This document shows, in pieces, positions 13,099 through 32,234 of a stretch of 64,000 nucleotides of DNA. The stretch lies in the NCBI RefSeq assembly GCF_024502345.1, contig NZ_JALDNN010000001.1; one strand, written 5' to 3'. Position 1 is the stretch's first letter, and each line of letters opens with the position of its first letter. The translations under genes and the position numbers were made by a program. Under the pieces are notes generated by a model. That model had not been told where the DNA came from and did no database searches. It saw only the letters and a program-made list of their open reading frames with translations. The DNA comes from Escherichia coli. GTDB taxonomy: Bacteria; Pseudomonadota; Gammaproteobacteria; Enterobacterales; Enterobacteriaceae.

Positions 13099-13099
13099 C

Positions 13100-13295: not shown

Positions 13296-13311
13296 GCCTA
13301 CGAAGGGCAAA

Positions 13312-14094
13312 CTACCCACGAACGTTAAACACCGCATACGTGTTATTAAGCAACACTTCGGCAATCTCATCCGCCGGTTCCCGGCGCAACTCGCAAAGCA
13401 CGTCAAACACCCGCGCAGCCTGTTCCGGGCGGTTAGGCTGCCCTTGAAAGCCGTTGAGCGGCATATCCGGCGCGTCGGTTTCCAGCAACAACGATGCCAG
13501 CGGTAATTTTGCGATGACATCGCGGGTTTTACTGGCGCGTGGATAGGTGATAGTACCGCCTACGCCGATTTTGTAGCCCAGCTGTACAAACCGCTCGGCC
13601 TGTTGCAGGCTGCCGGAAAAACCGTGAACCACGCCAGTGCGCGATAAATCGTGGCGTTTAAGATGCATCGCCAGTTTGTCGTGTGTGCGCCGTGAATGCA
13701 GGATCACCGGCAGATCGTAGCGTTTCGCCAGTTTCAGTTGTTCGTCGAGTAACCACTGCTGCCTCTCAAATTGCGGATCGTCGCCGAAGAGATCCAGACC
13801 GATCTCCCCCACCGCCACCACCTTCGCCGGACGCCTTTCCAGCGCCTGCTGTAGCTGATCAAGAGACACATCGCTATGTTTTTCCAACATCCCCGGATGC
13901 AACCCCAATGCGGCATACAGCGGTTGATATTTTTCCGCTAACGCCTGCACGCGGGCAAAATTTTCCGCCTCTGTCGCCGGAACAATGATCTTGCCTACAC
14001 CCGCTTGTGCCGCGCGTTGCAGGCTGGCCTCTTCATCGCCACTAAACGGCGGAAAATCAAAATGGCAGTGGGTGTCGATAAAACGGCAAATCAA
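13312..14094 (-). CDS. yjjV: TatD-family metal-dependent hydrolase / DNase
   Basis: 260 aa MICRFIDTHCHFDFPPF... TatD signature. Confidence 0.88.
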   Translation of the reverse strand: MICRFIDTHCHFDFPPFSGDEEASLQRAAQAGVGKIIVPATEAENFARVQALAEKYQPLYAALGLHPGMLEKHSDVSLDQLQQALERRPAKVVAVGEIGLDLFGDDPQFERQQWLLDEQLKLAKRYDLPVILHSRRTHDKLAMHLKRHDLSRTGVVHGFSGSLQQAERFVQLGYKIGVGGTITYPRASKTRDVIAKLPLASLLLETDAPDMPLNGFQGQPNRPEQAARVFDVLCELRREPADEIAEVLLNNTYAVFNVRG

Positions 14095-15200
14095 GCCAGA
14101 TCCTCATTGTTAAATGTCGGGTCGTTCGCCTGCGGAGCATCGCTCACTTCGGCAACCAGCGTATCGTTGGCGACTGGCGCAGGCGGAATAACAATCGATT
14201 CCGGCGTCACCACTGGCACCAGATGGCGGGTAAGCGGCGCTTTTTCAGTTAATAGCTTGCCAACCGTGGCGAGGAAATAACGACCGCATAAACGCCCAAG
14301 TTTATAGTCTTCACGCAGCGCCGGAATCCGACTGCCAAGCGCGATACTATGTAATGGCTTCGGCGGATAAATTTCGAATATCCGCAGCTTGCCCGGTGGT
14401 TTCTCAATAAATTGCTGAATGTCACGATAGCTGGTTTCATGATGCTGCACCAGATTGACCAGCGGCTGCAGGCTACTGTCACCCAGCCAGCGTTCCATGC
14501 GTTTGAACCACTGCGGCGTGTAGTACATTTGTGACGGCACAGTGCGGATGACGACCAACGTTTTAGCGCCCTGCCTTGCCGCCTCTTTAACCGGAATCGC
14601 ATCACTGATCCCGCCATCCAGGTAGTTAATGCCTTCCAGCGACACTCCGCTACGATAAAAGCCAGGTATCGCACTGGAGGCGCGAATCACATCCAGCCAG
14701 TTTTGTTTGGTTGGTAAAAAGTAATTCGGCGCGTAGTCATCCTGACGACAGGCGCACATATAAAACGATTTGCCGCTGTCAAACAACCGCGCGGCGGTAT
14801 CCATTTGCAACGGCATCTGGCTTGCGGTGGCCTCCACCAGCCAGTCGAGATCGATAAGATTTCCTCCACGGACAAAGCGCAATGGATCGAAAAATTCGCG
14901 TTTTGTGGTATAGCGCATGATGACTTTGCGCGCGTAACCGGGCTGATTGCAGATAAACGCCGAGAGGTTCTGCGCCCCGGCAGATGTGCCGAGATAAAGA
15001 TCGAAAGGATTAAACTGCGCGCGCATAAACTCATCCAGCACGCCAGCCGTGAAAATTCCACGCTGTCCGCCGCCTTCGCACACCAGAGCTATTCGTCCAG
15101 GCTGGAACGGCCTTAGCGACAACGGCGCAATATTACCCAGCGTTACAGGTATTCGCTGCCCCACCTCTGCCTTCCTGTTTTTGTTGTGAAAGAATGACAA
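14091..15200 (-). CDS. yjjU: Patatin-like phospholipase family protein
   Basis: GGGQRG and GTSAG patatin motifs; the true start may be an internal GTG near 15164. Confidence 0.85.
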   Translation of the reverse strand: MSFFHNKNRKAEVGQRIPVTLGNIAPLSLRPFQPGRIALVCEGGGQRGIFTAGVLDEFMRAQFNPFDLYLGTSAGAQNLSAFICNQPGYARKVIMRYTTKREFFDPLRFVRGGNLIDLDWLVEATASQMPLQMDTAARLFDSGKSFYMCACRQDDYAPNYFLPTKQNWLDVIRASSAIPGFYRSGVSLEGINYLDGGISDAIPVKEAARQGAKTLVVIRTVPSQMYYTPQWFKRMERWLGDSSLQPLVNLVQHHETSYRDIQQFIEKPPGKLRIFEIYPPKPLHSIALGSRIPALREDYKLGRLCGRYFLATVGKLLTEKAPLTRHLVPVVTPESIVIPPAPVANDTLVAEVSDAPQANDPTFNNEDLA

Positions 15201-15285
15201 AGTAACGCAATTTATTATTCGCTAAAACCGCAAAAGCCAGTCCGCTGGACTGGCTTTGGATAAAATTTTCTTAATGGTCTGAAAT

Positions 15286-15447
15286 CTAGGGTCGTTTTCG
15301 GCCCATGAACAAACTCACCAGGAACAGAATAATCCCGACGACAAAGACAATTTTAGCTGCGCCTGCAGCGGTACCGGCCAGACCACCAAACCCAAGTGCG
15401 GCGGCGATTAACGCGATAACCAGAAATATGATGCCCCAACGAAACAT
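15286..15447 (-). CDS. ytjA: Small membrane protein YtjA (DUF1328)
   Basis: 53 aa [22 protein letters not shown]... Confidence 0.8.
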
Positions 15448-15536
15448 AAGCGTCTCCTTTACCATAGTTAATGTCACCGCTTGATATGAGCGTGAAAATC
15501 ACTCAATGCGATATTTTTAGTGTGGTGCACATCGCG

Positions 15537-15558
15537 CCTCCCGACAAAGTTCGGGAGG
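15537..15558 (-). other. Stem-loop downstream of osmY (CCTCCCGA/TCGGGAGG)
   Basis: Perfect 8-bp inverted repeat; no clear T-run, so terminator status is uncertain. Confidence 0.4.
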
Positions 15559-15573
15559 ACGAATTACGACGAA

Positions 15574-16179
15574 TTACTTAGTTTTCAGATCATTTTTAAC
15601 GCTTTTCACACCATCTACCGCTTTGGCGATACTTTCAGCACGGTCACTTTGTGCCTGAGAATCTACGGTACCGAAGAGCTGAACCACGCCATCGGTGGTT
15701 TCAACTTTCACATGACGGGAAGGGACGATATCGTCCGCCAGCAGTTTGGCTTTGATTTCACTGGTGGTGGCGGTGTCACCCGCGTAGCCCTTCACCGAGC
15801 CTTCTTTAGCGTCGCGAACGTGCAGTTTGTCGCTGACAGAGGTCACCCCTTCAACGCCTTTCGCCACTTTTACTGCCTCTTCGGCCTGGGCCTGGCTTTC
15901 AACGAAACCGCTCAGGGTCACGACTTTTTGATCGGTTTTTACAGAGATATCGGTGCTCTTGATGTTGTCATGATCCACCAGGGCCGCCTTCACTTTCGCG
16001 GTGATGGCGCTGTCATCCATGAAATTACCGACTTTATTCATAGAGCTATCGACTTTTTGCCCTGCGCTTTCATTGGTAGTCTGCGCGTTGTTTTCCGCGT
16101 AGGCAGAGCCGGTCGCGACGGCAGAGGTCAACATTACAGCCAGCAGAGTTTTCGAAATCTTCAGTCTTGTCATAGTCAT
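15574..16179 (-). CDS. osmY: Osmotically inducible periplasmic protein OsmY (two BON domains)
   Basis: 201 aa from [28 protein letters not shown] (signal peptide). Confidence 0.93.
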
Positions 16180-16571
16180 CGATTTATTCCTGTATGTTTG
16201 CTCGTAATTTGAGCCTGGCAACACGAGGTTGCATTGCTGAATAGGGAGAGACTTCACCCTCTACAGAAGTCAATGGTCGCCATCACAAAAGCGATGAGTG
16301 ATAAATAACGACCATTACAGCCTCTGAATCAGTTATTAATATCGGTAGAATGACAATCGACGGCTTTAGATACTGATATCTACGCATTGAACGGTATTTA
16401 ACGCCGTCAGAAATGTCATCACTTTGTTAAATATAGATCACAATTTTGAAACCGCTCGTGATATCAGCGAAAACATAAGCAAAAGTGAATGTTTTAAGAA
16501 CATTCCGTAAGCGGCTAATAAGGAAGGGAAATTGACAGGGCGCAGCGGCTACCGCGCCCTGGAGGCAAGAA

Positions 16572-18158
16572 TTAATGCTCGCGGGTCTGGTGGAACTGAA
16601 CGTCCGGATAACGTTCCTGCGCCAGGCGCAGATTGACCATGCTGGTAGCGATGTAAGCGAGGTTATCGCCGCCATCAAGCGCCAGTTGGCTTTCGTTCTT
16701 ACGCTTGAACTCTTCGAATTTCTTCGCGTCCGCACATTCTACCCAGCGGGCAGTGGCAACGTTGACTGACTCATACACTGCTTCAACGTTGTATTCGCTC
16801 TTCAGGCGCGCTACAACCACATCAAACTGCAGCACACCAACTGCACCAACGATCAGGTCGTTGTTGGAGATCGGACGGAACACCTGCACCGCGCCCTCTT
16901 CGGAAAGCTGTACCAGCCCTTTGAGCAGCTGTTTTTGCTTCAGCGGATCTTTCAGGCGGATACGACGGAACAGTTCTGGTGCGAAGTTCGGAATACCGGT
17001 GAACTTCATCATCTCACCCTGGGTAAAGGTGTCGCCGATCTGAATGGTGCCGTGGTTGTGCAGGCCGAGGATATCGCCAGGATACGCTTCTTCAACGTGC
17101 GAACGGTCACCCGCCATAAAGGTCAGCGCGTCAGAGATCACCACGTCTTTCGCGGTGCGCACCTGGCGCAGCTTCATGCCTTTTTCATATTTACCGGATA
17201 CCACGCGCATAAACGCCACGCGGTCGCGGTGTTTCGGGTCCATGTTGGCCTGAATTTTAAATACGAAGCCGGTAAATTTGTCTTCGCTCGCTTGTACGGT
17301 ACGGGTATCAGTCTGACGCGGCATCGGCGCAGGTGCCCACTCCACCAGGCCATCCAACATATGATCGACGCCGAAGTTACCCAGCGCAGTACCGAAGAAT
17401 ACCGGAGTGATTTCGCCCGCAAGGAACAGCTCTTTGTCGAACTCGTTAGACGCGCCTTTAACCAGTTCCAGTTCGTCACGCAGCTGCTGTGCCAGATCTT
17501 CACCAACCGCAGCATCGAGATCCGGGTTATTCAGCCCTTTAACAATGCGGACTTCCTGAATGGTGTGCCCTTTACCGCTCTGATAGAGATAGGTTTCATC
17601 TTTATAAAGGTGGTAAACGCCTTTAAACAGCTTGCCGCAGCCAATCGGCCAGGTGATCGGCGCACAGCCGATTTTCAGCTCGTTCTCAACTTCATCGAGC
17701 AGTTCCATCGGGTCGCGGATATCACGGTCAAGTTTGTTCATAAAGGTGAGGATCGGCGTGTCGCGCAGACGGGTAACTTCCATCAGCTTACGGGTACGAT
17801 CTTCAACACCTTTTGCGGCGTCGATAACCATCAGGCAGCAGTCCACCGCCGTCAGGGTACGATAGGTATCTTCCGAGAAGTCTTCGTGCCCCGGGGTGTC
17901 TAGCAGGTTAACCAGGCAATCGTGATACGGAAACTGCATCACAGACGTAGTAATGGAGATCCCACGCTGCTTTTCCATCTCCATCCAGTCCGACTTAGCG
18001 TGCTGGTTGGAACCACGGCCTTTTACTGTACCAGCGGTCTGAATGGCCTGTCCGAACAGCAGCACCTTCTCGGTGATGGTAGTTTTACCGGCGTCCGGGT
18101 GAGAAATAATTGCAAAGGTTCTTCTTTTCGCTACCTCTGCGGCCAAAAGGCTTGTCAT
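16572..18158 (-). CDS. prfC: Peptide chain release factor 3 (RF3), with an N-terminus supplied by the adjacent prophage
   Basis: GTPase motifs [18 protein letters not shown]-terminus reads [15 protein letters not shown], differing from the ancestral [16 protein letters not shown] that survives as a fragment at 34906..34956. Confidence 0.9.
18098..18111. repeat. attL core: 14-bp direct repeat GGGTGAGAAATAAT inside the prfC 5' coding region
   Basis: Identical 14-mer recurs at 34892..34905; sequences outside the repeats together reconstruct an uninterrupted prfC 5' end. Confidence 0.7.
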
Positions 18159-18177
18159 AATTGTTGTCTCTTTGATT

Positions 18178-18295
18178 ATGTACAATCATATGTACAAAGA
18201 AAAATTCATGCCGCTGATTGTACATTTTGGAGGTATCAGAGCATAGCAGAACATGATCAGTAGGTGTATTTGTAGCCAAAGAACATTTGTACATG
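18178..18295. promoter_or_regulatory. Cluster of four (A/T)TGTACA(A/T) repeats, candidate integrase arm-type sites
   Basis: ATGTACAAT, ATGTACAAA, TTGTACATT, TTGTACATG just inside attL; a similar cluster sits beside int at 34670..34729. Confidence 0.45.
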
Positions 18296-18318
18296 CAGCA
18301 ATCTTTGTTCTATTGACA

Positions 18319-18362
18319 CTGTTTATTCATACAGTTAAAAATAACACTGTATACAAACACAG
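18319..18362. promoter_or_regulatory. Two tandem LexA (SOS) boxes, CTGT-N8-ACAG, around a TTGACA -35
   Basis: CTGTTTATTCATACAG (18319..18334) and CTGTATACAAACACAG (18347..18362), directly upstream of the dinI-like ATG. Confidence 0.75.
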
Positions 18363-18377
18363 TGTAGAGGGATTTTT

Positions 18378-18626
18378 ATGCGTATTGAGATCTGCATAGC
18401 CAAAGAGAAAATGACTAAAATGCCAAACGGTGCTGTGGATGCGTTAAAGGAAGAATTAACTCGACGCATCAGTAAGCGTTATGACGATGTAGAGGTGATC
18501 GTAAAAGCCACCAGCAACGATGGCCTTTCTGTTACGCGCACCGCCGATAAAGATTCAGCTAAAACTTTTGTTCAGGAAACTCTGAAAGATACCTGGGAGT
18601 CTGCTGACGAGTGGTTTGTTCACTAA
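18378..18626 (+). CDS. DinI-family damage-inducible protein
   Basis: 82 aa [12 protein letters not shown]...[10 protein letters not shown], resembles DinI; preceded by LexA boxes. Confidence 0.8.
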
Positions 18627-19052
18627 TTAACACGTAAAATCGGTAACGGCTGGAAATCATTCAATACTCGCACTATCGGAAGTTCACCAGCCAACCGCAG
18701 CACGTTCTTGCATACGACGTGTCTGCGGTTTTTCAACCATTCAGATACAGCACTCTCATCACATTCATTCTTCCGCATTAAAGTATATATGACCATATCA
18801 CCTTAATATTTTTCTTCTTCAGATAAAAATTGTTATCTATGTATACTTTTAAACCGAATCCGTGTAGAGTCTCTACCTAAGTTAGTTCGCAGCTACCCCT
18901 TCAGTTTGCGCCATTAACCTCCTGACTTTTGCCGCTATCTGTAAGCATTCCTGTATACCTGAAACTACAGGGTTCATCTACGAACTTTAAGAACACCCAG
19001 GATAAAAATTGTCAACTATATTATATATAACACCATACTAATTCGAGGCTAT

Positions 19053-19165
19053 ATGAACAGCATACTGATAATCACTTCACTACTTATCATATTCAGCATT
19101 TTTGGTCATGCTCTAATAAAATTAGGGATTGGCATATCCAATAACCCGGACAAAACCGATGTATA
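19053..19165 (+). CDS. Small hydrophobic ORF (~37 aa, [37 protein letters not shown])
   Basis: ATG with weak GAGG RBS; one predicted TM helix; too short for the ORF track. Confidence 0.25.
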
Positions 19166-19201
19166 AGTCAACATATCCTGAATCAGACATACAATATTGC
19201 A

Positions 19202-19468
19202 ATGAAAACCAATAATATTTTAAGGAATATCTTCATGAAATCAAAAGACACCCTAAAGTGGTTCCCTGCGCAGCTTCCTGAAGTCAGAATTATCCTGGGA
19301 GATGCTGTCGTGGAAGTAGCAAAACAGGGAAGACCTATCAATACCAGAACATTGCTTGATTACATTGAAGGAAACATAAAGAAAAAGTCATGGCTGGATA
19401 ACAAAGAATTATTACAAACAGCGATATCAGTTCTTAAAGACAACCAAAATTTAAATGGTAAAGTGTAA
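19202..19468 (+). CDS. ydfK: YdfK/YnaE-like prophage cold-shock protein
   Basis: ...MKSKDTLKWFPAQLPEVRIILGDAVVEVAKQGRPINTRTLLDYIEGNIKK... matches remembered YdfK/YnaE; the true start may be the internal MKSKDT. Confidence 0.7.
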   Translation: MKTNNILRNIFMKSKDTLKWFPAQLPEVRIILGDAVVEVAKQGRPINTRTLLDYIEGNIKKKSWLDNKELLQTAISVLKDNQNLNGKV

Positions 19469-19847
19469 TACCTCCCCTGAAAAATAATTTTTCAATGCAT
19501 TAAAAAAATATCAACAACTACGTTATTCCGCAACAACCTACTTTTTTTACCATTTTTCCACTTTAACAACATTTTGCTCCACTTTTCCACGACCAAACAA
19601 CTTAAAATCTGGTTAAAATAACATACAACACTATTATTCGTCTTCCTCGAGTCCGCCCGGAGTTCGAAAAACAAACCGAGTTAAAGCCATTTTTCAAAAA
19701 ATCGATTTTTGGTTACACCAAAATTACGGGACTGCATCCGAATTCGTTTATTTTCGAACGTATACATACAAATATGTACAATAATAAGCGAAATAATTTT
19801 TGGATATGCATTATGATATGTACACCAATTTCGTATAGAGTCTCACT

Positions 19848-20438
19848 ATGTCTCGAATTTTTGCTTACTGTCGGATATCAACGCTGGATCAGACCCCCGA
19901 AAATCAACGCCGGGAAATCGAAAGTGCAGGTTTTAAAATCAAACCTCAGCAAATAATCGAAGAACACATTAGCGGCTCAGCAGCAACCAGTGAGCGTCCT
20001 GGTTTTAACCGGTTGCTTGCTCGCCTGAAATGTGGTGATCAATTGATTGTGACAAAACTGGATCGCCTTGGTTGTAATGCAATGGATATCAGGAAAACAG
20101 TGGAACAACTGACCGAAACAGGTATCAGAGTGCATTGCTTAGCATTGGGGGGCATTGACCTGACCAGTCCAACAGGAAAAATGATGATGCAAGTAATTTC
20201 AGCAGTCGCTGAATTTGAACGAGACCTTTTACTTGAACGCACTCATTCCGGGATAGTAAGAGCCCGGGGCGCAGGGAAACGTTTTGGTCGACCACCTGTG
20301 TTAAATGAAGAACAGAAACAGGTGGTATTCGAACGAATTAAGTCAGGTGTAAGTATAAGTGCCATTGCCCGGGAATTCAAAACCTCGCGGCAAACCATTT
20401 TAAGAGCCAAAGCAAAACTTCAGACACCTGACATATAA
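19848..20438 (+). CDS. pin: Serine recombinase, DNA invertase (Pin/Gin/Hin family)
   Basis: [28 protein letters not shown]... resolvase catalytic domain plus C-terminal HTH. Confidence 0.9.
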
Positions 20439-20535
20439 AAAATAATCTCGGTGTGAGATGCTTTACGTCTTCCAAGCCCCCTTCCTTGCCGTAAATGGAA
20501 AGATACATCTAATTATAGAATTTATATGTTTTACC

Positions 20536-21117
20536 CTACGGCAGTGCTGGCCATTCAATATCCTGTGCAGTTGACGTATCAACACGGTTCAGCAATACCC
20601 GATACTTTTTCCATGCTTCCAGCAACGAGATTTCTTCCTCCGTTGCAATTTCCAGATCTGCAGCATCCTGAAGCGGCGCAATATGCTCACTGGCTACCTG
20701 CATCAGGTTGTTTTTTGTTTCTTCCGCCTCCCGGATCCGGAACAGTTTTTCTGCTTCCGTATCCTTCACCCAGGCTGTGCCGTTCCACTTCTGAAACTCC
20801 CCTTCCGGGGATAACCAAGTGACATTTTCCGGTAATGGGCCAAGTTCAGAAATAAATAACGCGTCGCCGGAAGCCACGTCATAGACGGTTTTACCCCGAT
20901 GGTCTTCAACGAGATGCCACGATGCCTCATCACTGTTGAAAACAGCCACAAAGCCAGCCGGAATATCTGGCGGTGCAATATCGGTACTGTTTGCTGGCAG
21001 ACCTGTATGAGGTGGAATATATGCATCACCTTCACCAATAAATTCATTAGTTCCGGCCAGCAGATTATAAATTGTTATGGTCCGTGGTTGTTCACTCATT
21101 CTGAAATCCATGTTCAC
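20536..21117 (-). CDS. tfa: Tail fibre assembly protein (Tfa)
   Basis: 193-aa ORF with Tfa-like sequence, immediately downstream of the tail-fibre-like ORF. Confidence 0.8.
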
Positions 21118-21119
21118 CT

Positions 21120-22022
21120 CTACTTAATATCAGAGACAGAATATTGTTTATTGAACGTATGGGTGTGAGCACCAATAACGATGCTACTTCCGTGGCTATG
21201 TGCGCCAGAGATGACATTACCTACGGGATTTTCTGGATTAATCCGGTGTATATGCGAACCAGGGCGAAACCGGTTATTAGCCTGATGTTGTATCAGTACA
21301 TCATCAGCCTGATGTTCAGGGTTAATACAGACCTGCCCGGAACGTGAGCAATACGTCCGATAATCGCCGCATCCAATATATTTAGTATCCGCATAACGGC
21401 AAACAGAATTACCCGGACAGTATGCATATGTGCCAAATACTGCCGACTGGCGGGATTGTGCGTATTCCCAGTTAATTGATTCTGTTTTTTTATTAAAGTT
21501 ATCCCATGCCTGCTTCATCTGCCGGGCAACACTTTCAAACGGCACCTGACCACATCCGGCTCCCATTGCAGGGAATACCACCGTTTTTATTTTCCTGTCT
21601 GTCGTTGCGTGTTTATTGTGCTGAAAGATGGCAAGCAGAGCGGCCCAGGTTGCGTTATATACAGCGTCTGTTCCGTCAATTGTCAGCGGAACACGCATTG
21701 TTGGCGCATGTACCAGCCAGGGATGATGATTATGCCCCGTTTCAATAACAAATGCAGAACCTACAGGCTGCTCGCCGAGATATTCACGAAGAATATGATT
21801 CTGAACGCGGGACTGTAACTGAGTACCGAAGAATGCGGTAATGGCGGCATCAACACCGCCATCCATCAGGCCGAAACTGTTTGCCGCACTTACCATGCAG
21901 TCAAATTCCCTGATTGTTTCAAATGGCTTTCCGACAATATTCACATTATCTGCATTTGCGAATACCCGCTTAAATGCTTCAGCCATTTCTGTTACTGGTG
22001 CAGAAAGAATGAGCGTAATCAT
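21120..22022 (-). CDS. Macro-domain-like protein with a Cys-rich, HxH-repeat C-terminus
   Basis: Motifs [30 protein letters not shown]...[21 protein letters not shown] resemble the macro (ADP-ribose binding) fold; C-terminus GAHSHG...GAHTHT resembles tail-fibre HxH repeats. Confidence 0.55.
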
Positions 22023-22170
22023 GCAAGCCTCACAATATAGTTAAATGCGATGTTTTTGACGGTGTTTTCCGCGTTACCAGCAGCGTTAACGGTGATGGTG
22101 TGTCCATGTGACCCTATCGCAACGGAGTGCGTATGAGCACCAATACCGACAGTATGCGCGTGTGCACCTG
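22019..22170 (-). pseudogene. C-terminal fragment of side tail fibre (Stf) protein
   Basis: ...[51 protein letters not shown]; canonical Stf C-terminal end; N-terminal part missing. Confidence 0.7.
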
Positions 22171-22204
22171 CAGATACTGCTGTAAAAACGCATGAAATGT
22201 GCCG

Positions 22205-22892
22205 ACTCGTTAGCGGCTTTTTCGATCTGGCAGGAGCCTTTGATTTTAGGCGTCGAGCCGCGAATGGATTTTGGCCATACAGAGCCCTCAATACGTTTAT
22301 CCCCCAGCAGGGTTGGCGAACCCTCTTTTTCAACATCCGGTTCGAACGAGGAAAGTTCGTCATAGCAGACCACATCCACGGATTTTTCACGGTAGTTTTT
22401 GGCGGCAGCGCCGCCCAGGCACCATAAACCGACGCCCGATGAAAAGCGTTTCAGCGTGAGGGTATTATCACGATGTTTACGACCCAGCCATGGGGAAAGG
22501 TCTTTCAGGCATGGCACGTCCCTAATCGTCGTCTCCACGTGAGACTTCATAAAATCTTCAGCGGCAGAATCCGTGGGCTGAAAAAGCAGACTGTTTCGGG
22601 ATTTATGCTCAATAAAATACCCGACCACCCCCAGCAACATCTTTGTATAGCCAACACGGGCAGATTTAATCAGATTAACTGTGCGGATCTGATCATTCCC
22701 CATACTGTTCATGATGGCGATCTGGAACGGCAGCGTTTTCCATTCGCCGTCACCGTATGAGGATTCTTTCGGCAGATAATAATACTGATCAGCCCATTCA
22801 ACTGCCGTCATCGGTACAACCCTGACCAGAGGCTGCAGCGCAACCGAAACGGCAGCCATCAGATTATTCAGTTGTTGCTCTGATATATTCAT
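22205..22892 (-). pseudogene. Terminase large subunit (lambda gpA-like), N-terminal fragment only
   Basis: MNISEQQLNNLMAAV...TAVEWADQYYYLPKESSYGDGEWKTLPFQ...[34 protein letters not shown] aligns with lambda A residues ~1-250, then the frame degenerates into the stf fragment. Confidence 0.8.
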
Positions 22893-23367
22893 CCAGCAAA
22901 TCCGGTAATTTATCCCCTGCCCGCGCACACTGATTTGCGCCCTTCGCAATAAGGGTTTTCAGATGGTCAAGATGACGTGGCGTTAAATCCGGGAACTGTC
23001 GCTGCATGGATAACGGAATAGAATCAAGCGTACTGGACAATGCCATCGCCAGCTTGCTGAGGGCGAAAACGCAGAAGTCTGAATCGATGAGCTTACCTTC
23101 GGTTACCTGATTTTTAAGTTTTTGAGCTACGGCCTGTTCTTCTGTCAGTTCAGCTCTGGCCCGAAGCAGCCTTTCCTCCAGATCGCCCCCGTCATCAGGT
23201 GTTCTATGATTGTGTTGTCGCCGCTCGCGATCTATCTCCAGTACAGTTTTAACGTCATAAAAAACTTCCCTCCCCCGACGCTCGACAGGAGGAACGCCCC
23301 ATTTATCAAATGCCTGAACAGAGATACCGATGGAGGAGGCCATATCACTTTTATTCAATAAAAAGGC
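22864..23367 (-). CDS. Terminase small subunit (lambda Nu1-like, NohA/NohQ-type)
   Basis: MAFLLNKSDMASSIGISVQAFDKWG...LPLSMQRQFPDL...LDEYI resembles Nu1. Confidence 0.8.
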   Translation of the reverse strand, partial: AFLLNKSDMASSIGISVQAFDKWGVPPVERRGREVFYDVKTVLEIDRERRQHNHRTPDDGGDLEERLLRARAELTEEQAVAQKLKNQVTEGKLIDSDFCVFALSKLAMALSSTLDSIPLSMQRQFPDLTPRHLDHLKTLIAKGANQCARAGDKLPDLLDEYIRATTE

Positions 23368-23797
23368 CATCTCCTCTCCATAAGTCATCGATAAAAAGCG
23401 ATACAACAACCATGTGTTTTTACAAAACCATTTGATATCATTTAATTTTTTCACATTAATGACATCAAAGCACATCGTAAGGTTGTTGTATTTATTTTAT
23501 TTTCACCTTACTTATCAATTAGATATACCAAACAATTAAACAACAACCACCCCCTCAAAAAATCTCATAAATAGCGAAAAACCGCGAGGTCGCCGCCCCG
23601 TAACCTGTCGGATCGCCGGAAAGGACCCACAAAATGATAATAATTATCATCTACATATCACAACGTGCGTGTACGCCATCAAACCACGTCAAATAATCAA
23701 TTATGACGCAGGTATCGTATTAATTGATCCGCATCAACTTAACGTAAAAACAACTTCAGACAATACAAATCAGCGACACAGAATACGGGACAACCTC

Positions 23798-23989
23798 ATG
23801 TCAACGAAGAACAGAACCCGCAGAACAACAACCCGCAACATCCGCTTTCCTAACCAAATGATTGAACAAATTAACATCGCTCTTGATCAAAAAGGGTCCG
23901 GGAATTTCTCAGCCTGGGTCATTGAAGCCTGCCGTCGGAGACTAACGTCAGAAAAGAGAGCATCTACATCAATCAAAAGTGATGAATAA
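23798..23989 (+). CDS. YlcI/YnfO-family small prophage protein (DUF3950-like)
   Basis: MSTKNRTRRTTTRNIRFPNQMIEQINIALDQKGSGNFSAWVIEACRRRL; divergent from Nu1 as in DLP12/Qin. Confidence 0.65.
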   Translation: MSTKNRTRRTTTRNIRFPNQMIEQINIALDQKGSGNFSAWVIEACRRRLTSEKRASTSIKSDE

Positions 23990-24242
23990 TGAATATCCCG
24001 GTTTCTTTACCTCCCCTCCCACCCCGCACAGGACTGGCGAACGTGTGGGACAAATATGTGAGTCATAAACGCCTTATCTTCAGAAATGCAGTTGGCATCC
24101 GAACAGGACGATATTGTAACTTCACCTAATTACGAGGCATTGCAGTAGTTGAATTGTAGTTCTGTATTAGCCTGACAGTGACAGAATGCGATATTGACTC
24201 TGTCACAGGTGAAATAGTTTGAATGGTTAGCAGTTATGGCGA

Positions 24243-24449
24243 TCAGTCAACCACCAGGGAATAATCCTTCGAATTCTTATCGTGCTTCACCAACGCTGCC
24301 TCAATTGCCCTGAATGCTTCCAGAGACACTTGATGTTCTATACATGCAATTACAACATCCGGATAACTCATAGAAATGGTGCTAGTGAGCATAGTTTTTA
24401 CACGGACCTGATCCAAGGATGAGTCATCAGTGTATTGATCTTTATGCAT
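24243..24449 (-). CDS. Hypothetical prophage protein
   Basis: 68-aa ORF in the position of ydfO-like genes; no motif recognised. Confidence 0.3.
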
Positions 24450-24744
24450 TTTGTCGCTCCATGCGTTTGCTCTTCACTTGCGGCTAAAAATATAACGTCA
24501 AATCACTCAGCATGAAAGTGTGAAAGTTTCAGCGCGTTTCCCTTACATAATCTGTCGTTTGTATTCTCTCCAGGCATACCGGAAAGACTAGGTATTGTCA
24601 CACAACCAATACCACCGACTATCGAGATTTATATCTATTCGGTAATGTTTAAATATAAAAAAACCCCGTAAAAACGAGGTTTATGGGTAAATTGTATTGT
24701 TGAATAGCATCTGATAAGAAATTGATGCTAATACTATAAACACA

Positions 24745-24918
24745 CTAGATTAAATCAATCTTGATATCATAGCTTTCAAGACCAGTCATTTTTTCCCGTG
24801 CAGTAAACTGGATACTGGTAACTTCTTTCCCGGTCTTTTTCTTAAGCTCAATAATTTTTTTTGTTATATATTCAGAAATATCTGCTTCTGTTTTTGTTTT
24901 TAACTCTTCAATGTTCAT
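24745..24918 (-). CDS. gnsB: GnsA/GnsB-family protein
   Basis: MNIEELKTKTEADISEYITKKIIELKKKTGKEVTSIQFTAREKMTGLESYDIKI resembles GnsB. Confidence 0.75.
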   Translation of the reverse strand: MNIEELKTKTEADISEYITKKIIELKKKTGKEVTSIQFTAREKMTGLESYDIKIDLI

Positions 24919-25090
24919 CATTTCCTCTTTTAGTCTGTTATGACTTTCCTGGTACACAGTAGTGTCAATTATATGGAGCAAACGTATAAAAGATAAGATG
25001 AAACATCGCAATAATCAACATACGACAGTCTAAATTTCGCACAAACAGATAAAGATGATTATCCTTTATTATCAAGGCATTAGAATGAAA

Positions 25091-25360
25091 TCAATTCAAG
25101 AGTCTCATTGCTGCTTCCAGAATTTCTTCTGAAGTTACATGTCGATCCGCTGCTACATAAATGACTTTATGATCTCCGGTCAGAGATGGAAACCCTGCAG
25201 CCATTACAGTGAGATGTGTTGTTTCGCCATTTGGATATTCACGCATGATGGTGTTAACTCCGGTCATCACTGGCACTACCATTGCTGGTTCAGAGTTAAA
25301 AAAAACTATTATTTTTTTCATGATGTTACCGTAATATGTGAGTATCCATCGACTAGACAC
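25091..25360 (-). CDS. Hypothetical prophage protein (ynfN position)
   Basis: ORF between the gnsB-like and csp-like genes; identity uncertain. Confidence 0.35.
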   Translation of the reverse strand: MSSRWILTYYGNIMKKIIVFFNSEPAMVVPVMTGVNTIMREYPNGETTHLTVMAAGFPSLTGDHKVIYVAADRHVTSEEILEAAMRLLN

Positions 25361-25592
25361 TAAGCAAAAAAGCTCCCGAAGGAGCCTTCATTTTCACTTT
25401 CTTAAATCTAACGACAGACGGCTAACATTTAAGTATTGTGAAATATTATCAAATGTAATCATCATTGATTTACAAAAGATACATTTTGCCCCGAAAGGAT
25501 TCCTGTCAGAAACATCAAAAGATGATGTTCTATACTGAGAACCATGGCAACACGGGCATCTAAAGTGAATATGGTTTGTAATATTTTCTACC

Positions 25593-25805
25593 TCAAAGTG
25601 CCACTACATGAACAGCCGCGGGGCCTTTAGGTCCGTTCTCAATACCAAATTCGACTTGCTGATTCTCAGTTAACGTTTTGAAATCGTTGCTCTGAATAGC
25701 TGAGAAATGGACAAACACATCTTTGCTACCATCTTTCGGCGTGATGAAACCAAAACCTTTTTCAGGGTTAAACCATTTCACTAAACCAGTCATTTTGTTA
25801 GACAT
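25593..25805 (-). CDS. cspI: Cold-shock protein (CspA family), prophage copy
   Basis: [38 protein letters not shown]... RNP1/RNP2 motifs; the paralog name is a guess from Qin gene order. Confidence 0.8.
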
Positions 25806-26174
25806 CATTATTACCTTTTGAAGAAGTGAGCCCTTGGGCAGAATGGTCCGAAAAAAAATATCAGAGAGAAAAACCAACAAGGAAATCTCAAGAGGTACAA
25901 ATAATAAAATTATAACAATGACTGCTTCAGATAATTTTGTAACAAACCAGAACACCATTAACGCATGATTAACCAACCATAGCAAGGATTACTTTTGTAA
26001 AGAAAAACACACGAATGAAACAATAGCTTTATTTATTAATAAAACGTGTCATTCTGTCTAATGACCTTTTATCTTACCCTTAAGATTTCAAGGATTTTGA
26101 CTCATGGAAGAGTCCTTTTTATTTAAATTTCACATTCAGCGCTAAAAATAATCCGATTTAATGTTAATCTACAT

Positions 26175-27196
<1,022 letters not shown>

Positions 27197-27301
27197 GGAT
27201 ATTTATCAGGATTTATCGGTTTCTGAACCCTGGATATGTTTATCTGTCCCGGCCTGTTGAATCAGGCGGGGAAAAGGTAAAGACAATCAAGAGGATTATT
27301 T

Positions 27302-27574
27302 ATGGACAATAACACCATTTCTCTACAGGAGTTGCTCGACTGCATTTCAAAGCTTCGGGATGATGTAAATGCCCTCACTGTTGCATTTTCATATTTGGCC
27401 TTATCAATTCCCAGAGAACAAATGCAACCAACACTGGCATCGCTCCTGCTTGAATCACGCAACCCCAAATGGTCCCAGGAACAACAAAATTCTTTCAAGT
27501 GGCTGGCGGCATTACTGGAAGAAAAATATGCTGGTAAAATTACCATTTCGGTGGAGTCTTCAGAGAATCAGTAA
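27302..27574 (+). CDS. Hypothetical 90-aa protein on the strand opposite to the lysis cassette
   Basis: ORF fills the gap between endolysin and ydfR-like gene; hydrophilic, helical-looking; no homolog recalled. Confidence 0.25.
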   Translation: MDNNTISLQELLDCISKLRDDVNALTVAFSYLALSIPREQMQPTLASLLLESRNPKWSQEQQNSFKWLAALLEEKYAGKITISVESSENQ

Positions 27575-27884
27575 TTCTTCCTGGTAGCTTTCCTTTGTAG
27601 GTTATCCACACATTCTGCGCCTCTAAAATTACGGGGCGCTTTTCCGGCGACTGCTCATCCCCTTCACATAACCCGGCTGCAACTTCCAGGAAGACCTGTC
27701 TGATGCTCCTTCTGGCTGCTGCCTCATAAAACTCCAGCGCGGCACCTTCAACACGGTCCAGCGAGATGTCCAGGTCAAAAATTTCACCGTCAAAGCGTTT
27801 TTTGTCCCTTAATGCTACAGTTACCGCAACTTTATTCTCAAAATTGCGGATCCCTTTCACAATCAGTTCATAGTTTTGTGTCAT
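27540..27884 (-). CDS. YdfR-like prophage protein (DUF1327)
   Basis: Sits between holin and endolysin as ydfR does in Qin. Confidence 0.6.
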   Translation of the reverse strand: MTQNYELIVKGIRNFENKVAVTVALRDKKRFDGEIFDLDISLDRVEGAALEFYEAAARRSIRQVFLEVAAGLCEGDEQSPEKRPVILEAQNVWITYKGKLPGRITDSLKTPPKW

Positions 27885-27888
27885 TGAA

Positions 27889-28104
27889 TTACTCTCCCCG
27901 TGCAACCTTACGCTTGTCTTCTTTAATCTTGAAATAAAGGTTTGTCAGGTACGTCAGCAAGCCAAATACCAGACTACCCAGCACACCGATTGCAGCCCAC
28001 TGTGACGGAGTTACTTTATCGAGTAACTGCAATGCCCAGAAACCAGCATTACCAGCCGATGTGCCATAGGCGATACCTGTTGTTAACTTATCCATTGATT
28101 TCAT
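27889..28104 (-). CDS. Holin (phage 21 S / EssQ-like)
   Basis: 71 aa with TM segments WALQLL...[15 protein letters not shown] and a charged C-terminus. Confidence 0.8.
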
Positions 28105-28322
28105 ATCCTCACCCCGATGTACACAGATGGTGCAATATGTTTGAAAAGATCGGAGTCTATGGGGTAGTTTTTATAGCAAACGTTGTTCTCAACGGCGCTA
28201 AAAAACAGACACATTAAAAATGTGGGTAATTATTTTAAAAGAAAATCATATATTAAATAATAATACGAGATATGTTTTCATATTTAGTGTACTGTATACG
28301 GCCATTTATACAGGAAAAGCCT

Positions 28323-28493
28323 ATGTCAGAACGTAAAGACTCAAAATCACGCCGTAATTATCTCGTTAAATGTTCCTGCCCAAACTGCACCCAAGAGTCA
28401 GAACACAGTTTTTCAAGAGTACAAAAAGGTGCCCTTTTGATCTGCCCTCATTGCAACAAAGTATTCCAGACAAATCTTAAAGCTGTAGCTTGA
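28323..28493 (+). CDS. Small zinc-ribbon protein (CxxC...CxxC)
   Basis: MSERKDSKSRRNYLVKCSCPNCTQESEHSFSRVQKGALLICPHCNKVF; AGGAAA RBS. Confidence 0.4.
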   Translation: MSERKDSKSRRNYLVKCSCPNCTQESEHSFSRVQKGALLICPHCNKVFQTNLKAVA

Positions 28494-28552
28494 TTGATTT
28501 TATTCGTAACAAGTATTTTTTATATTTTAATAACATATTTAAAGCAGATAAT

Positions 28553-28577
28553 AAAAAACCCGCCTGAGCGGGTTTAA
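28553..28577. terminator. Hairpin ACCCGC-CTGA-GCGGGT with flanking A/T runs
   Basis: Perfect 6-bp stem with T-run on the minus strand. Confidence 0.5.
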
Positions 28578-28856
28578 TATTGTGGTACTTTTTGTGGGAG
28601 TCATCCACTTACGCACTTTGTTTTGCTATGCCAGCAGTTAGCTTCTGCTGTAAAACTATTCATGCAGCAAACCTGCACTTCACCACAATGGTTAGCATAC
28701 TTTTCCTGATTAAGTTATTGCCAAATATGCTGGCCATTGTTTCATGTATTGGACCTCCTTACTCTTTATTAAAGAGATCCAATATTCACCACTCTGTCTG
28801 TATCTCCACTCAGGCATCAGCCTTCTTCGTTATCGTATACAGACAAACTATGAATT

Positions 28857-29072
28857 TTAATCAGTAATTATGACATTTGCTGCTGCAGGACCTTTAGCAC
28901 CACTCTCTACAGAGAAGGTAACCTTTTGACCTTCAAATAAGATTCGATAATTATCATTCTGAATCGCAGAAAAATGCACAAACACATCTTTACTACCATC
29001 AACAGGAGAAATAAAGCCAAAACCTTTATCAGCGTTAAACCATTTTACTAAACCAGTCATTTTATTTGACAT
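28857..29072 (-). CDS. cspB: Cold-shock protein (CspB-like)
   Basis: [38 protein letters not shown]... Confidence 0.85.
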
Positions 29073-29372
29073 TCTACATTCCTTAACTTGAGCCTTTCGG
29101 CATAAATGGCTTGTATAACAGAAACGACTTCGTACTTAATTGGAGAGACTCAAAGAAGGAATAAGTGAATAACACCTGAAATGAGAACTGCTTTAGTAAA
29201 CTACTTCGTATATCGTCTGTTCTTCAAACCGACGCAATCATTAACGCATAGTTGAACATATGAAGCAATGTTTATTTTAGACATCCAGCCATCTTCAACC
29301 CCATCAAAAAACTATAGCTTTCTTCAGGAACGTGTGTATAGTGCGCCAAGTTATCAGTATTAAGGAATTTTT

Positions 29373-29585
29373 TTGTCCCGTAAAATGACAGGAATTCTCA
29401 AAACCTTTGACGGCAAAAGCGGCAAAGGTCTTATAACCCCATCCGATGGTCGTATCGATGTCCAGCTTCATGTTTCAGCGCTCAATCTCCGCGATGCAGA
29501 AGAAATTACCACCGGATTACGCGTGGAATTTTGCCGGATAAATGGTCTGCGTGGACCATCAGCTGCCAATGTTTACCTTTCATGA
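29373..29585 (+). CDS. cspF: Cold-shock-like protein (CspF/CspH-like)
   Basis: [39 protein letters not shown]... Confidence 0.8.
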
Positions 29586-29880
29586 GCTATATTAAAGCTT
29601 TAACTTCAAGCCCCATCGAATCAAACATGGAGAGTTTTCATGAATAAACCCGTCTGTCTTGATGACTGGTTGATTGGCTTTAAAAGCTTATGCTGTACTT
29701 TGACCTTAATAGCTCTGCTAATAATGTAATAAGCAGACTCATTGTATCTATGGACATTGTACTGGAAGAAAACATTTTAAACATCAGGCAAAAAACAAAG
29801 TCACCCGATAAATAATAAGTAAACTAACATGAATCCCGTAATGAGATTCAACATCTCTATTACCCTATTTAAAGCACAAA

Positions 29881-29905
29881 AACCCGCTCATCAGCGGGTT
29901 TTCTA
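29881..29905. terminator. Candidate late-operon terminator (tR'-like) downstream of Q
   Basis: CCCGCT-CATC-AGCGGG stem with T-runs on both strands, ~110 bp past the Q stop. Confidence 0.5.
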
Positions 29906-30007
29906 CTTTTTCTTAACTTCGGGTATACAAAGCCCATCGTTGAAAAAATTTTATCCATATTTTTTGAAAAATGCAAGCATCACGTCGCCATCTTCGGCGA
30001 AAATCAC

Positions 30008-30760
30008 TTATCTCGTCACCTTTCTCAATTGTGCTTCAGCGTAAGATTCCTCCTGCCAGCACTTTGTAACCAGTTTATCAATGACATTTGCATATCCTTT
30101 ATACCACTGATAATCACTCAGGTCCGGTACCAGCTTCTGGACATGATGCCGCGCCAGTGTGGTTGGTAAACGACTAAACCGTTTTCCATTGCAACGCCCA
30201 CAAATCTTATAAACAGGTGTGCCATGAAGCCGGGTCCTTTTTTCATCCAAGACAATACCTTTACCCTTACACCCTCTGCACGCTGTGCTGACTTCTCCCT
30301 TACCATGGCAATGCTGACATAGTTCCTTCACCCACTCTTCTTTGATAACAGATTCCCCGCTTCTGGAGTGTTTCACCACTTCGCGCAATACATTATGAAA
30401 TCCAGTACCAGCACAATGCTCACAACGAGCCTTACTTGCCGCAGACCTGGAATAATCAGCAAAGGCAAAATTCACAAGGTAAGGAATAATCTGTAGCCGG
30501 GTTTCTTCACTCAATTTATTCAATGTCGGGTTATCCAGTGCCATCGCGTAATTGAGCAGACCTTCAATCGCAAACTGAGGATCCTGAACACCAACTTTTG
30601 CCAGGAATAAGGCAAACCCAAGCGGTGCTTTCGACTGCACCATCCCCTGCGCAGCCATCACATCCGTAATCGTTAAACCACCAGAGCCTGTCGCCGGTGC
30701 GTCATCACTCAATTTTGGAGATTTTGGGGAGTAATATTTTGGTAAGGCTTCAAGGTTCAT
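30008..30760 (-). CDS. Late-gene antiterminator Q (QuuQ/phage 82 Q-like)
   Basis: 250 aa with Cys clusters CEHCAGTG, CQHCHGKG, CRGCKGKG, CGRCNG. Confidence 0.8.
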   Translation of the reverse strand: MNLEALPKYYSPKSPKLSDDAPATGSGGLTITDVMAAQGMVQSKAPLGFALFLAKVGVQDPQFAIEGLLNYAMALDNPTLNKLSEETRLQIIPYLVNFAFADYSRSAASKARCEHCAGTGFHNVLREVVKHSRSGESVIKEEWVKELCQHCHGKGEVSTACRGCKGKGIVLDEKRTRLHGTPVYKICGRCNGKRFSRLPTTLARHHVQKLVPDLSDYQWYKGYANVIDKLVTKCWQEESYAEAQLRKVTR

Positions 30761-30820
30761 GCTCGTTCTCCACTTACGCCAGTACGCCTATTGCCAGCGC
30801 ACGATCGATAAAACGAAATA

Positions 30821-31171
30821 TCAGCTCCAGCTGGGAGCCATACTTCTCTTCAAATGCCACGGTAAACGCTGGTTAATATCGGCATTGTCCACATCCTCGA
30901 CGTCAGGAAGAGACACAAAGACGCCATTTGCAGACTGCGCCACAGCGTCAGCAATGAAGTGAGTGCCACCAGCACGTTGTAAAATCATTGCCCATCCCAG
31001 CGGGAAAATCTGATCGCCATCGGCACGAAGGCGGTTAAATAATGCGTTCTCTGTTACATCCAGCCACTCAGCAGCTTCAGCGTACCCCACCGGCAACGCC
31101 GCGATAGTTTTTCTGACAGCTTTCACGTACCACTCAGGCTGTTTTTCCACTTTCCAGTGATGATTACCCAC
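30821..31171 (-). CDS. Phage regulatory protein, CII-like; possibly truncated
   Basis: 116-aa ORF overlapping the Cro-like gene stop and ending 60 bp before Q; no replication genes in between. Confidence 0.4.
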   Translation of the reverse strand: MGNHHWKVEKQPEWYVKAVRKTIAALPVGYAEAAEWLDVTENALFNRLRADGDQIFPLGWAMILQRAGGTHFIADAVAQSANGVFVSLPDVEDVDNADINQRLPWHLKRSMAPSWS

Positions 31172-31424
31172 GGCTTACCTCCTGTTCCTGTGGTTTAAAC
31201 CCATTCTGGTTTTGGCTAGATTGAAAACGTGCCGGATAAAGAATCTGCATTTCGCTGATTTCACCCTTAAAAAAATTGGCCAGACGTTCTGCAAGATCGA
31301 TAGATGGAATTTGTTCCAGTCTTTCAATACGACTCAGCGTCGCTGGATTGACCTGAACGCCAGCAGCAACATGCTGCAAAGTAAATCCGTGCGCCTTACG
31401 CACATTCCGTAATGGTGATTGCAT
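31164..31424 (-). CDS. Cro/antirepressor-like HTH protein
   Basis: HTH GFTLQHVAAGVQVNPATLSRIE; divergent from the cI-like repressor. Confidence 0.6.
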   Translation of the reverse strand: MQSPLRNVRKAHGFTLQHVAAGVQVNPATLSRIERLEQIPSIDLAERLANFFKGEISEMQILYPARFQSSQNQNGFKPQEQEVSRG

Positions 31425-32214: not shown

Positions 32215-32234
32215 CCCTTACCTCCTCATCAATT

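Follow-up and report, generated by a model that had tools for sequence, protein, structure and literature searches.

The window (i.e. the whole stretch of DNA that was analysed, 64 kb) contains a prophage remnant in which the large terminase gene (terL) abuts the side tail fibre gene (stf). This scar very probably arose through one homology-independent deletion of ~21.66 kb in a cos-type prophage at the prfC/yjjG site. The element as a whole reads as an ordinary decayed lambda-like (cos-type) cryptic prophage of an E. coli-type chromosome, with DLP12 and Qin as its kin in type, and a cryptic prophage at this locus is a known kind of feature. Its extent was defined by gene content of lambdoid type and by alignment to an empty-site genome (NZ_CM194533.1), which matches the window up to position 18138 and resumes at 34892.

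18139..34891, unstranded: whole prophage remnant, ~16.75 kb, from prfC to yjjG
18097..18138, + strand: att-type imperfect direct repeat on the prfC side, 42 bp of the empty site with copies at both ends of the element
34892..34933, + strand: att-type imperfect direct repeat on the int/yjjG side, the second copy of the 42-bp empty-site stretch

The two att-type copies match at 34 of 42 positions and have the common core GGGTGAGAAATAAT. Several features mark the element as a cryptic prophage: att repeats bound the integrated phage DNA, the site is empty in NZ_CM194533.1, int lies near one end, the genes for particle formation have been lost and the genes at the border of this loss are cut (terL at codon 236, stf at codon 1079). 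The modules are in lambdoid order (int - immunity - Q - lysis - cos/terminase - tail fibre end) and are collinear with those of an intact relative. About 16.75 kb is retained out of roughly 51 kb, ~34 kb having gone through three independent deletions with overlaps of no more than 3 bp. The remnant, which appears from its gene content to be defective for both replication and particle formation, is passed on vertically with the chromosome of one lineage.

The largest of these losses was placed by comparison with an intact lambdoid prophage at the same prfC/yjjG site in E. coli 1504D004 (NZ_CP149565.1, 4364100-4413200; L002 in the coordinates given here). Window positions 12105..22184 align with L002 3..10082 and positions 22183..27240 with L002 31738..36794, the junction flanks exhibiting 99.9% and 100% identity, respectively, to this relative; L002 10083..31739 (21,657 bp) is exactly absent from the window. 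The lost span comprises the last 406 codons of terL, 19 whole genes (i.e. W, portal, protease, D, E, FI, FII, Z, U, V, G, T, H, M, L, K, I, J and lom) and the first 1078 codons of stf. No tblastn match to J or lom was obtained in the window. This absence between collinear flanks bears out the sequence-only reading, in which the head and tail region had been removed by one or more deletions. One deletion would suffice on grounds of parsimony, as nested successive deletions would give the same scar.

22183..22184, unstranded: deletion junction, where 'TA' is the only sequence common to both parental ends (base-by-base comparison with both intact flanks)

Around 16% of random joins would have a 2-bp overlap by chance, and the overlap therefore says little on the joining mechanism. 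A search for microhomology near 22170..22205 had been proposed; the junction does lie inside this range, and the two ends have only 2 bp in common, which is not above chance. Direct and inverted repeats at the junction were limited to short matches of a size often due to chance, and an Rfam scan returned nothing at this position. Between 21000 and 24500, promoters and terminators were no more numerous than expected from shuffled sequence.

Cutting and joining by a site-specific or transpositional enzyme, either Pin acting at a pseudo-crossover site or an IS element that has since departed, is highly improbable as the source of the deletion. A pin gene is indeed located 1.7 kb from the junction and an IS30 is present elsewhere in the window, but neither an IS sequence nor a target duplication was found at the junction, which also lacks any direct or inverted repeat of note. 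Recombination by the Din family (Pin/Gin/Hin/Cin) would call for a conserved AAACC-NN-GGTTT core where the DNA was rejoined. Near 22183 there is no such crossover core (AAACCNNGGTTT, ≤1 mismatch), and the three near-matches in the window (9857, 24671 and 57609) agree with a chance expectation of 2.3. The other two junctions in the element are likewise of the short-overlap type. A homology-independent, illegitimate deletion would have joined terL codon 236 to stf codon 1079 out of frame, with removal of all head, connector and tail genes, and would have left at the scar cos with an intact small terminase gene (terS), a dead terL stub and 54 untranslated fibre codons, followed by a Macro-domain gene, tfa and pin. 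The ends may have been joined through repair of a double-strand break by end-joining, or through an error of replication or of a topoisomerase.

The terminase side of the scar retains a fragment of terL.

22185..22892, - strand: large terminase (terL) fragment, codons 1-236 of 642, with its ATG at 22892 (Pfam GpA_ATPase, E=3e-38)

Alignment to lambda A and stf, which had been proposed as the means of locating the breakpoints, was carried out. On the terminase side, the stub aligns residue for residue with residues 1-236 of lambda gpA (68% identity, E=6e-126). The large terminase had been described as cut to its first ~250 codons; it is an N-terminal fragment, as stated, with a true length of 236 codons. 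The N-terminus and the greater part of the ATPase domain survive in the stub, the KSARVGY and VVCYDE motifs among them; the final portion of the ATPase domain and the nuclease domain in its entirety are gone. Its GpA_ATPase (PF05876) match stops at profile position 214 of 247, leaving the domain incomplete, while the intact terL homologue carries GpA_ATPase at residues 49-293 (profile positions 5-247) and GpA_nuclease at residues 323-601. The GpA_nuclease family (PF20454) is missing from the 268-aa open reading frame that starts with the stub and has no match anywhere in the 64-kb window. A full-length large terminase elsewhere on the island, which would have contradicted the sequence-only reading, was sought by tblastn; no second large terminase was found in the window, and no terminase, portal or capsid family was present among the called genes of the island. 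The terL sequence is a homologous fragment and not a functional member of the gpA family.

On the other side of the junction lie the end of stf and intact genes of the late operon, in the following arrangement.

22019..22183, - strand: side tail fibre (stf) fragment, the last 54 codons (1079-1132 of 1132) plus stop, with His-x-His tip motifs
22086..22892, - strand: chimeric open reading frame, 268 aa, of 236 terminase residues and 32 missense residues from tail-fibre DNA, with its stop at 22086
21120..22022, - strand: Macro-domain gene, 300 aa, intact, between stf and tfa (Pfam Macro, E=7e-19)
20536..21111, - strand: tail fibre assembly gene (tfa), 191 aa, intact (Pfam Caudo_TAP, E=4e-43), 100% identical to that of the intact prophage
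19848..20438, + strand: Pin-type serine invertase gene (pin), 196 aa, intact (Pfam Resolvase and HTH_7), 99.5% identical to the reference

The stf fragment exhibits 100% identity to residues 1079-1132 of the 1132-aa stf product of the intact relative and 78% identity to the C-terminus of lambda orf-314/Stf (E=2e-29). Chance is far from able to account for the matches of the two terminase genes and of this fragment. A terminase frame running directly into the last ~50 codons of a side tail fibre had been proposed: the direct abutment is confirmed, with 54 fibre codons, but the fibre is not read in its own frame. A one-base shift separates the two frames (the terminase codons begin at 22184, those of the fibre at 22183), and the terminase frame continues for 32 missense residues to a stop. 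An identical 268-aa chimeric protein is annotated by gene callers in public assemblies. The Macro-domain gene, whose product is 99.7% identical to WP_000631342.1 of intact prophages, now lies 64 nt downstream of the chimeric frame. The sole notable repeat near the junction is a His-x-His coding motif common to stf and the Macro-domain gene.

A public assembly index has 74 blocks that list exactly the 268-aa chimeric protein, and an identical 78-mer spanning the junction was observed in eight fetched contigs (NCBI drafts, ENA gut metagenomes and Logan) whose overall identity was 99.8-99.995%. None of 5,426 complete E. coli genome records spans the junction (3.8-kb and 240-bp queries), indicating that the source lineage is absent from that collection; the chromosome flanks of the element are 98.6% identical to the best complete genome. 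This absence from complete genomes is the one observation in favour of an assembly artefact, whether a chimeric join or a region collapsed in a single assembly. Against it stand the 74 index blocks with the exact protein, the identity of the 78-nt junction across eight independently assembled contigs (isolates, human-gut metagenomes and a Logan run) and the presence of only 2 bp in common between the ends, which leaves no repeat for an assembler to collapse. On this evidence an artefact can be regarded as effectively refuted, and the junction is real and inherited.

Upstream of the terL stub, the cos site and the small terminase gene are preserved.

23587..23598, - strand: cosN cohesive end GGGCGGCGACCT, the sole exact match in the window (0 expected), with lambda-like flanks
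22864..23370, - strand: intact Nu1-like small terminase (terS), 168 aa (Pfam PF07471, Phage_Nu1, E=2e-20)

The alignment to the left end of lambda at cos is conserved through GGGCGGCGACCTCGCGG.TTTTCGCTATTTATGA, and cosN lies 217 nt upstream of the terS ATG at 23370. An intact Nu1-like small terminase had been predicted here and was recovered as such: TerS covers nearly the whole Phage_Nu1 profile (positions 4-163 of 164), scores 73.5 bits where the curated cut-off is 30, and is 100% identical to TerS of the intact prophage. Its identity to lambda Nu1 is 36% over 175 columns (E=4e-31). The end of the gene had been set at 23367, at the correct location but 3 nt short of the ATG at 23370, from which RefSeq starts the identical protein; an upstream ATG at 23475 is chosen by some gene callers. 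The terS gene (ending at 22864) and terL (starting at 22892) overlap by 29 nt.

Beyond the scar, the lysis, Q, cI and int genes were reported to be retained and this was upheld by tblastn and Pfam matches, with a cro-like gene also present. Two more deletion junctions were found.

26175..28104, - strand: lysis cassette of holin, YdfR, lysozyme and Rz-like gene (full-length tblastn matches at 94-99% identity; Pfam families)
30008..30760, - strand: Q-type antiterminator, 250 aa, intact (PF03589)
30862..30864, unstranded: second deletion junction, 'GTA' common to both ends, joining the last 31 codons of a DUF968 gene to ymfL codon ~103
31164..32214, unstranded: immunity region, with a cro-like gene at 31164..31424 (- strand, 86 aa) and a cI-like repressor gene at 31522..32214 (+ strand, 230 aa)
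32707..32709, unstranded: third deletion junction, 'AAC' common to both ends, with 6,775 bp missing relative to a related prophage (L017)
33438..34661, - strand: tyrosine integrase gene (int), 407 aa, 96.8% identical to a 411-aa reference

The cI-like protein matches HTH_3 and Peptidase_S24. At the second junction about 5.7 kb of replication/nin genes is missing, and the replication/nin block of the intact relative gave no tblastn match in the window. The third deletion took yfdP, yfdQ, yfdR, yfdS, a DUF551 gene and 1092 codons of the defence gene dsr1, of which related prophage copies carry the full 1275-aa version. Further decay proceeded by two more deletions of the same type, in the replication/nin block and in the region from cI to int. 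As to their order, a compared sequence (L011) hints that the DUF968 region was lost after the terL/stf deletion had taken place. As the replication/nin and cI-to-dsr1 regions are lost, the element would be defective in replication besides particle formation.

The combination of cosN and an intact terS with int, a cI/cro switch and a small size of about 16.75 kb also fits a helper-dependent (PICI-like) satellite, which would retain cos and terS so as to be packaged by a helper lambdoid phage into its capsids, and would by nature have no structural genes. Such an identity is very unlikely for this element. An intact 49-kb prophage occupying this att site matches the junction flanks at 99.9-100% identity, two genes are cut mid-codon and out of frame at the junction, and ymfL, the DUF968 gene and dsr1 have also been cut short by deletions. 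The called genes include no replication or primase module for replication of its own, while holin, lysozyme, an Rz-like gene and Q are present, which are normally missing from satellites. Lambda packaging has a limit of roughly 38 kb as the minimum between cos sites, and 16.75 kb is far under it. A Pfam-based search recognised no packaging-redirection gene in the element. The satellite assignment was rejected because genes are cut, no replication module remains and the sequence is nearly that of an intact prophage.

Whether as part of a decayed prophage the segment cos - terS - terL(1-236) may nevertheless be kept for a function was considered, and there is a slim chance of this, either through interference of the stub with the packaging of related superinfecting lambdoid phages or through helper-dependent cutting at cos with recombinational rescue of genes of the remnant. 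The N-terminus of lambda gpA is the Nu1-binding region. For the interference version, a nuclease-less stub could assemble into dead complexes of terminase, or could titrate such complexes at a chromosomal cos. If retention were functional, selection and not chance would account for the recurrence of this layout in DLP12 and, in looser form, in Qin.

For a decayed cryptic prophage, the late genes would still be Q-driven after derepression, and the remnant may be no more than a store of cos-nu1, lysis and tfa modules that infecting lambdoid phages could take up by recombination, a role shown experimentally for DLP12, Qin and Rac (PMC3945230). There is little significance past correct annotation: the locus should be annotated as a cryptic prophage, with terL and stf as pseudogene fragments instead of a 268-aa 'terminase large subunit', and the lysis, Q, cI and int genes are best treated as remnants. 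The element offers a clean, base-resolved example of lambdoid prophage decay, inclusive of the loss of a prophage-borne defence gene (i.e. dsr1), and the carrier lineage can be conveniently tracked by the junction 78-mer or by the chimeric protein in its exact form.

Among known systems, DLP12 of E. coli K-12 (nohD - aaaD' - tfaD) has the same arrangement of an intact Nu1 homologue, nohD, by cos followed by an N-terminal gpA-type pseudogene, aaaD. Past its terminase stub, the late operon likewise resumes at its tail-fibre-assembly end, and lysis genes, Q and int are kept while head and tail genes are gone. The nu1, R and Rz genes of DLP12 have been shown to function once recombined into lambda (PMC3945230). 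DLP12 differs in its location (argU, in contrast to prfC/yjjG), in a shorter terminase stub (a 309-nt pseudogene) and in a distal breakpoint in or near tfa and not in stf; its deletion is an independent event in a different prophage.

The order of genes in Qin of E. coli K-12 (ydfK - pinQ - tfaQ - stfQ - nohA - ynfO ... cspI - rzpQ - rrrQ - ydfR - essQ - cspB - cspF - ydfT) matches that of the present element, with 92-95% nucleotide identity over the pin-tfa and the late/lysis/cold-shock segments, and Qin has also lost the head-tail block from the Nu1 homologue to the tail-fibre 3' end. Qin differs in its site (ydfJ/rspB), in its immunity region (dicA/dicC), in having no Macro-domain gene between stf and tfa, and in that nohA runs into a 320-codon stfQ, with no nucleotide similarity found to the present terL stub.

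Phage lambda (J02459; nu1, A and stf, the last as orf-401/orf-314) has the same cos-nu1-A arrangement with overlapping genes, and exhibits 68% identity in gpA and 78% in the Stf tip; unlike the remnant it is complete, and its Nu1 is only 36% identical to TerS. The prophage of E. coli 1504D004 occupies the same att site between the same flanking genes, with 99.9-100% identity at the junction flanks, and differs from the remnant in that neither the 21.66-kb morphogenesis block nor the 5.7-kb replication/nin block is missing.

All genes at the terminase/tail-fibre scar lie on the minus strand. The following features define its terminase side.

22864..23370, minus, small terminase gene terS (168 aa; Nu1-type, PF07471, E=2e-20; ORF listing and Pfam scan)
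ATG at 22892, minus, start of a truncated gpA-type large terminase (terL) fragment (GpA_ATPase, E=3e-38; Pfam)
23587..23598, minus, cosN (GGGCGGCGACCT) with lambda-like flanks

The small terminase is intact and Nu1-like, as the sequence-only reading had it, and the terL start overlaps terS as in lambda. Pfam placed a macro-domain gene and then a tail-fibre assembly gene (tfa) downstream, together with a Pin-type serine invertase gene on the plus strand. Truncation of terL was also correctly read, but the stub has 236 codons and not about 250; its GpA_ATPase match stops at profile position 214 of 247, and no nuclease domain was found in the truncated protein by Pfam scan. A C-terminal piece of the side tail fibre gene (stf; 54 codons) follows as described, whereas the supposed continuous frame does not hold. 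Codons start at 22184 on the terminase side and at 22183 on the fibre side, so that the join is out of frame and the fibre tip is not translated from the terminase start. The chimeric ORF (22086..22892) instead encodes 236 terminase residues and then 32 missense residues.

Both remnants were aligned to their lambda counterparts, as had been suggested. The terL stub aligned residue-for-residue with gpA 1-236 (68% identity, E=6e-126) and keeps the KSARVGY and (V)CYDE motifs, which in gpA form the Walker A segment and the Walker B/catalytic-glutamate segment. As the ATPase and nuclease domains of an intact homologue occupy residues 49-293 and 323-601, the 236-codon stub is predicted to be incapable of cutting cos or translocating DNA. 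The 54 fibre codons match the very C-terminal end of Stf in lambda (orf-314; 78% identity) and include His-x-His repeats.

The breakpoints were located by comparison with related prophages. On the tail-fibre side, several complete E. coli genomes match 19800..22184 at 99.9% identity, up to a point within a large 'prophage tail fiber' gene; on the terminase side, these genomes match 22183..23600 at 100% identity, within a full-length terminase gene. E. coli 1504D004 (NZ_CP149565.1) has both pieces in a single intact lambdoid prophage, which lies between prfC and yjjG; this prophage region (L002) aligned at 3..10082 with window 12105..22184 and at 31738..36794 with window 22183..27240. The absent piece (L002 10083..31739; 21,657 bp) takes in the last 406 terL codons, 19 whole genes (W, portal, S49 protease, decoration protein, major capsid, FI, FII, Z, U, V, G, T, tape measure, M, L, K, I, J and Lom) and the first 1078 of 1132 stf codons, bearing out the proposed loss of the head and tail region. 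A single event suffices for this deletion; nested events are also possible.

No complete E. coli genome (0/5,426) spans the junction. Against these genomes the chromosome flanks (window 1-18100) reach no more than 98.6% identity, placing the source lineage outside that collection; the host lineage is unrepresented there. Prophage DNA on both junction sides (19800-23600), by contrast, matches prophages of several complete genomes at 99.9-100% identity. The divergence of its hosts long predates the prophage. An assembly artefact was ruled out, since a public-assembly index records the exact 268-aa chimeric protein for 74 blocks, and an identical 78-nt junction was present in every one of eight contigs retrieved. 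These came from four draft genomes at NCBI, three metagenome assemblies at ENA (human gut in at least one case) and a single Logan run. Identity to the window was 99.8-99.995% across 11.7-20.8 kb for seven of them and 99.88% across 10.7 kb for the Logan contig, which diverges beyond that stretch. Inheritance of the deletion is within a lineage.

In the Logan contig (L011; SRR10682086), which shares the junction, identity is 99.9% between the chromosome flank and 23960. The contig's late region (1-7240, against window 24747-30864) is just 93-94% identical; across 27677-30864 its alignment statistics equal those of K-12 Qin, and its DUF968 gene is longer (at least 301 aa). This divergence reflects either post-deletion recombination with a Qin-type prophage or a chimeric short-read contig.

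Two further deletions were located, the first of which is absent from the sequence-only reading.

30862-30864, second deletion junction, 'GTA' shared, within 30821-31171
32707-32709, third deletion junction, 'AAC' shared, within 32650-33255

The second (about 5.7 kb) fuses the last 31 codons of the DUF968 gene to codon ~103 of ymfL (the cII-position gene) and removes the entire replication/nin block, with genes for KilA-N, RusA, a methyltransferase, PerC, an HTH replication-type protein and Rha. The third (6,775 bp relative to a related prophage) removes yfdP, yfdQ, yfdR, yfdS, a DUF551 gene and 1092 of 1275 codons of dsr1, an anti-phage defence gene encoding 1275 aa in related prophages at this site; a 201-aa SIR2-like ORF (32650-33255) retains its first 183 codons. 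A prophage-borne defence gene has thus been lost. All three deletions sum to about 34 kb and the ancestor was therefore about 51 kb, a lambda-like genome size.

Junction overlaps were 2, 3 and 3 bp. At the main junction, where microhomology had been suggested, 'TA' (22183-22184) is all that the parental sequences share base by base; as about 16% of random joins would show a 2-bp overlap by chance, it is not significant. Direct and inverted repeat searches found no repeats able to explain the main deletion, and its junction has no IS sequence or Din-type crossover site. Together these results point to illegitimate, homology-independent joining, for which break end-joining, a replication error or a topoisomerase error would be candidate routes.

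Bounded against a genome with an empty prfC-yjjG site, the element spans 18139..34891 (about 16.75 kb) with a 42-bp imperfect repeat at each end. Genes for DinI-like, YnfT, YdfK, Pin, Tfa, macro-domain, TerS, YnfO-like, GnsB, YnfN, YmcF, CspI, Rz-like, lysozyme, YdfR, holin, YnfU, CspB, CspF, Q, cro-like, cI-like repressor and Int proteins are full-length, in agreement with the reported retention of lysis genes, Q, cI and int. The integrase ORF (33438-34661) encodes 407 aa against 411 in the reference (earlier stop) and the Rz-like ORF (26175-26666) 163 against 165. The remnant has the same four CSD-fold cold-shock paralogues as Qin (ydfK, cspI, cspB and cspF). Rfam matches comprised cspA-type thermoregulator leaders over cspI and cspB (25566-25963 and 28794-29233, minus) and candidate sRNA IS009 within tfa (20570-20768, minus). 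The macro-domain gene (21120-22022, minus, 300 aa) lies exactly between the stf stop, which it overlaps, and the tfa start; as tfaQ directly follows stfQ in K-12 Qin, it looks like an inserted moron. The C-terminal ~50 residues of its product contain His-x-His motifs that weakly resemble the fibre tip (E=0.006), and any anti-defence role through ADP-ribose removal is speculative. Outside the element, a 1.2-kb IS30 (40373-41591) disrupts yjjQ, adjoining bglJ; this insertion site recurs in two complete E. coli genomes whose flanks are otherwise more distant.

Judged by gene content, an element lacking the terL nuclease, portal, capsid and tail genes should be unable to make particles, as was proposed, and loss of the replication block should leave it unable to replicate. 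The cI/cro-Q-lysis axis looks intact, with only about 60 nt now separating Q from the truncated ymfL ORF upstream of it, and lysis may still be inducible. The terS-terL'-macro-tfa string remains downstream of the late region. Through recombination, infecting lambdoid phages can acquire functional cos-nu1, lysis and stf/tfa segments from remnants of this sort, as was shown for DLP12, Qin and Rac (PMC3945230).

The original observation is thus confirmed with minor corrections and its interpretation supported; the main use lies in correct annotation and as a lineage marker. A satellite (PICI-like) reading was rejected, given five genes cut by deletions, no replication module, a full lysis cassette and flanks nearly identical to an intact prophage. 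The element is an ordinary cryptic lambdoid prophage. Its architecture is like that of K-12 DLP12, in which intact nohD is followed by aaaD, an N-terminal gpA pseudogene, and then tfaD. Gene order is the same in Qin, which is 92-95% identical over the pin-tfa and late regions and likewise lacks the head-tail block, between nohA and stfQ. The att site and breakpoints differ from those of DLP12 and Qin, making the element an independent instance of a well-known kind.
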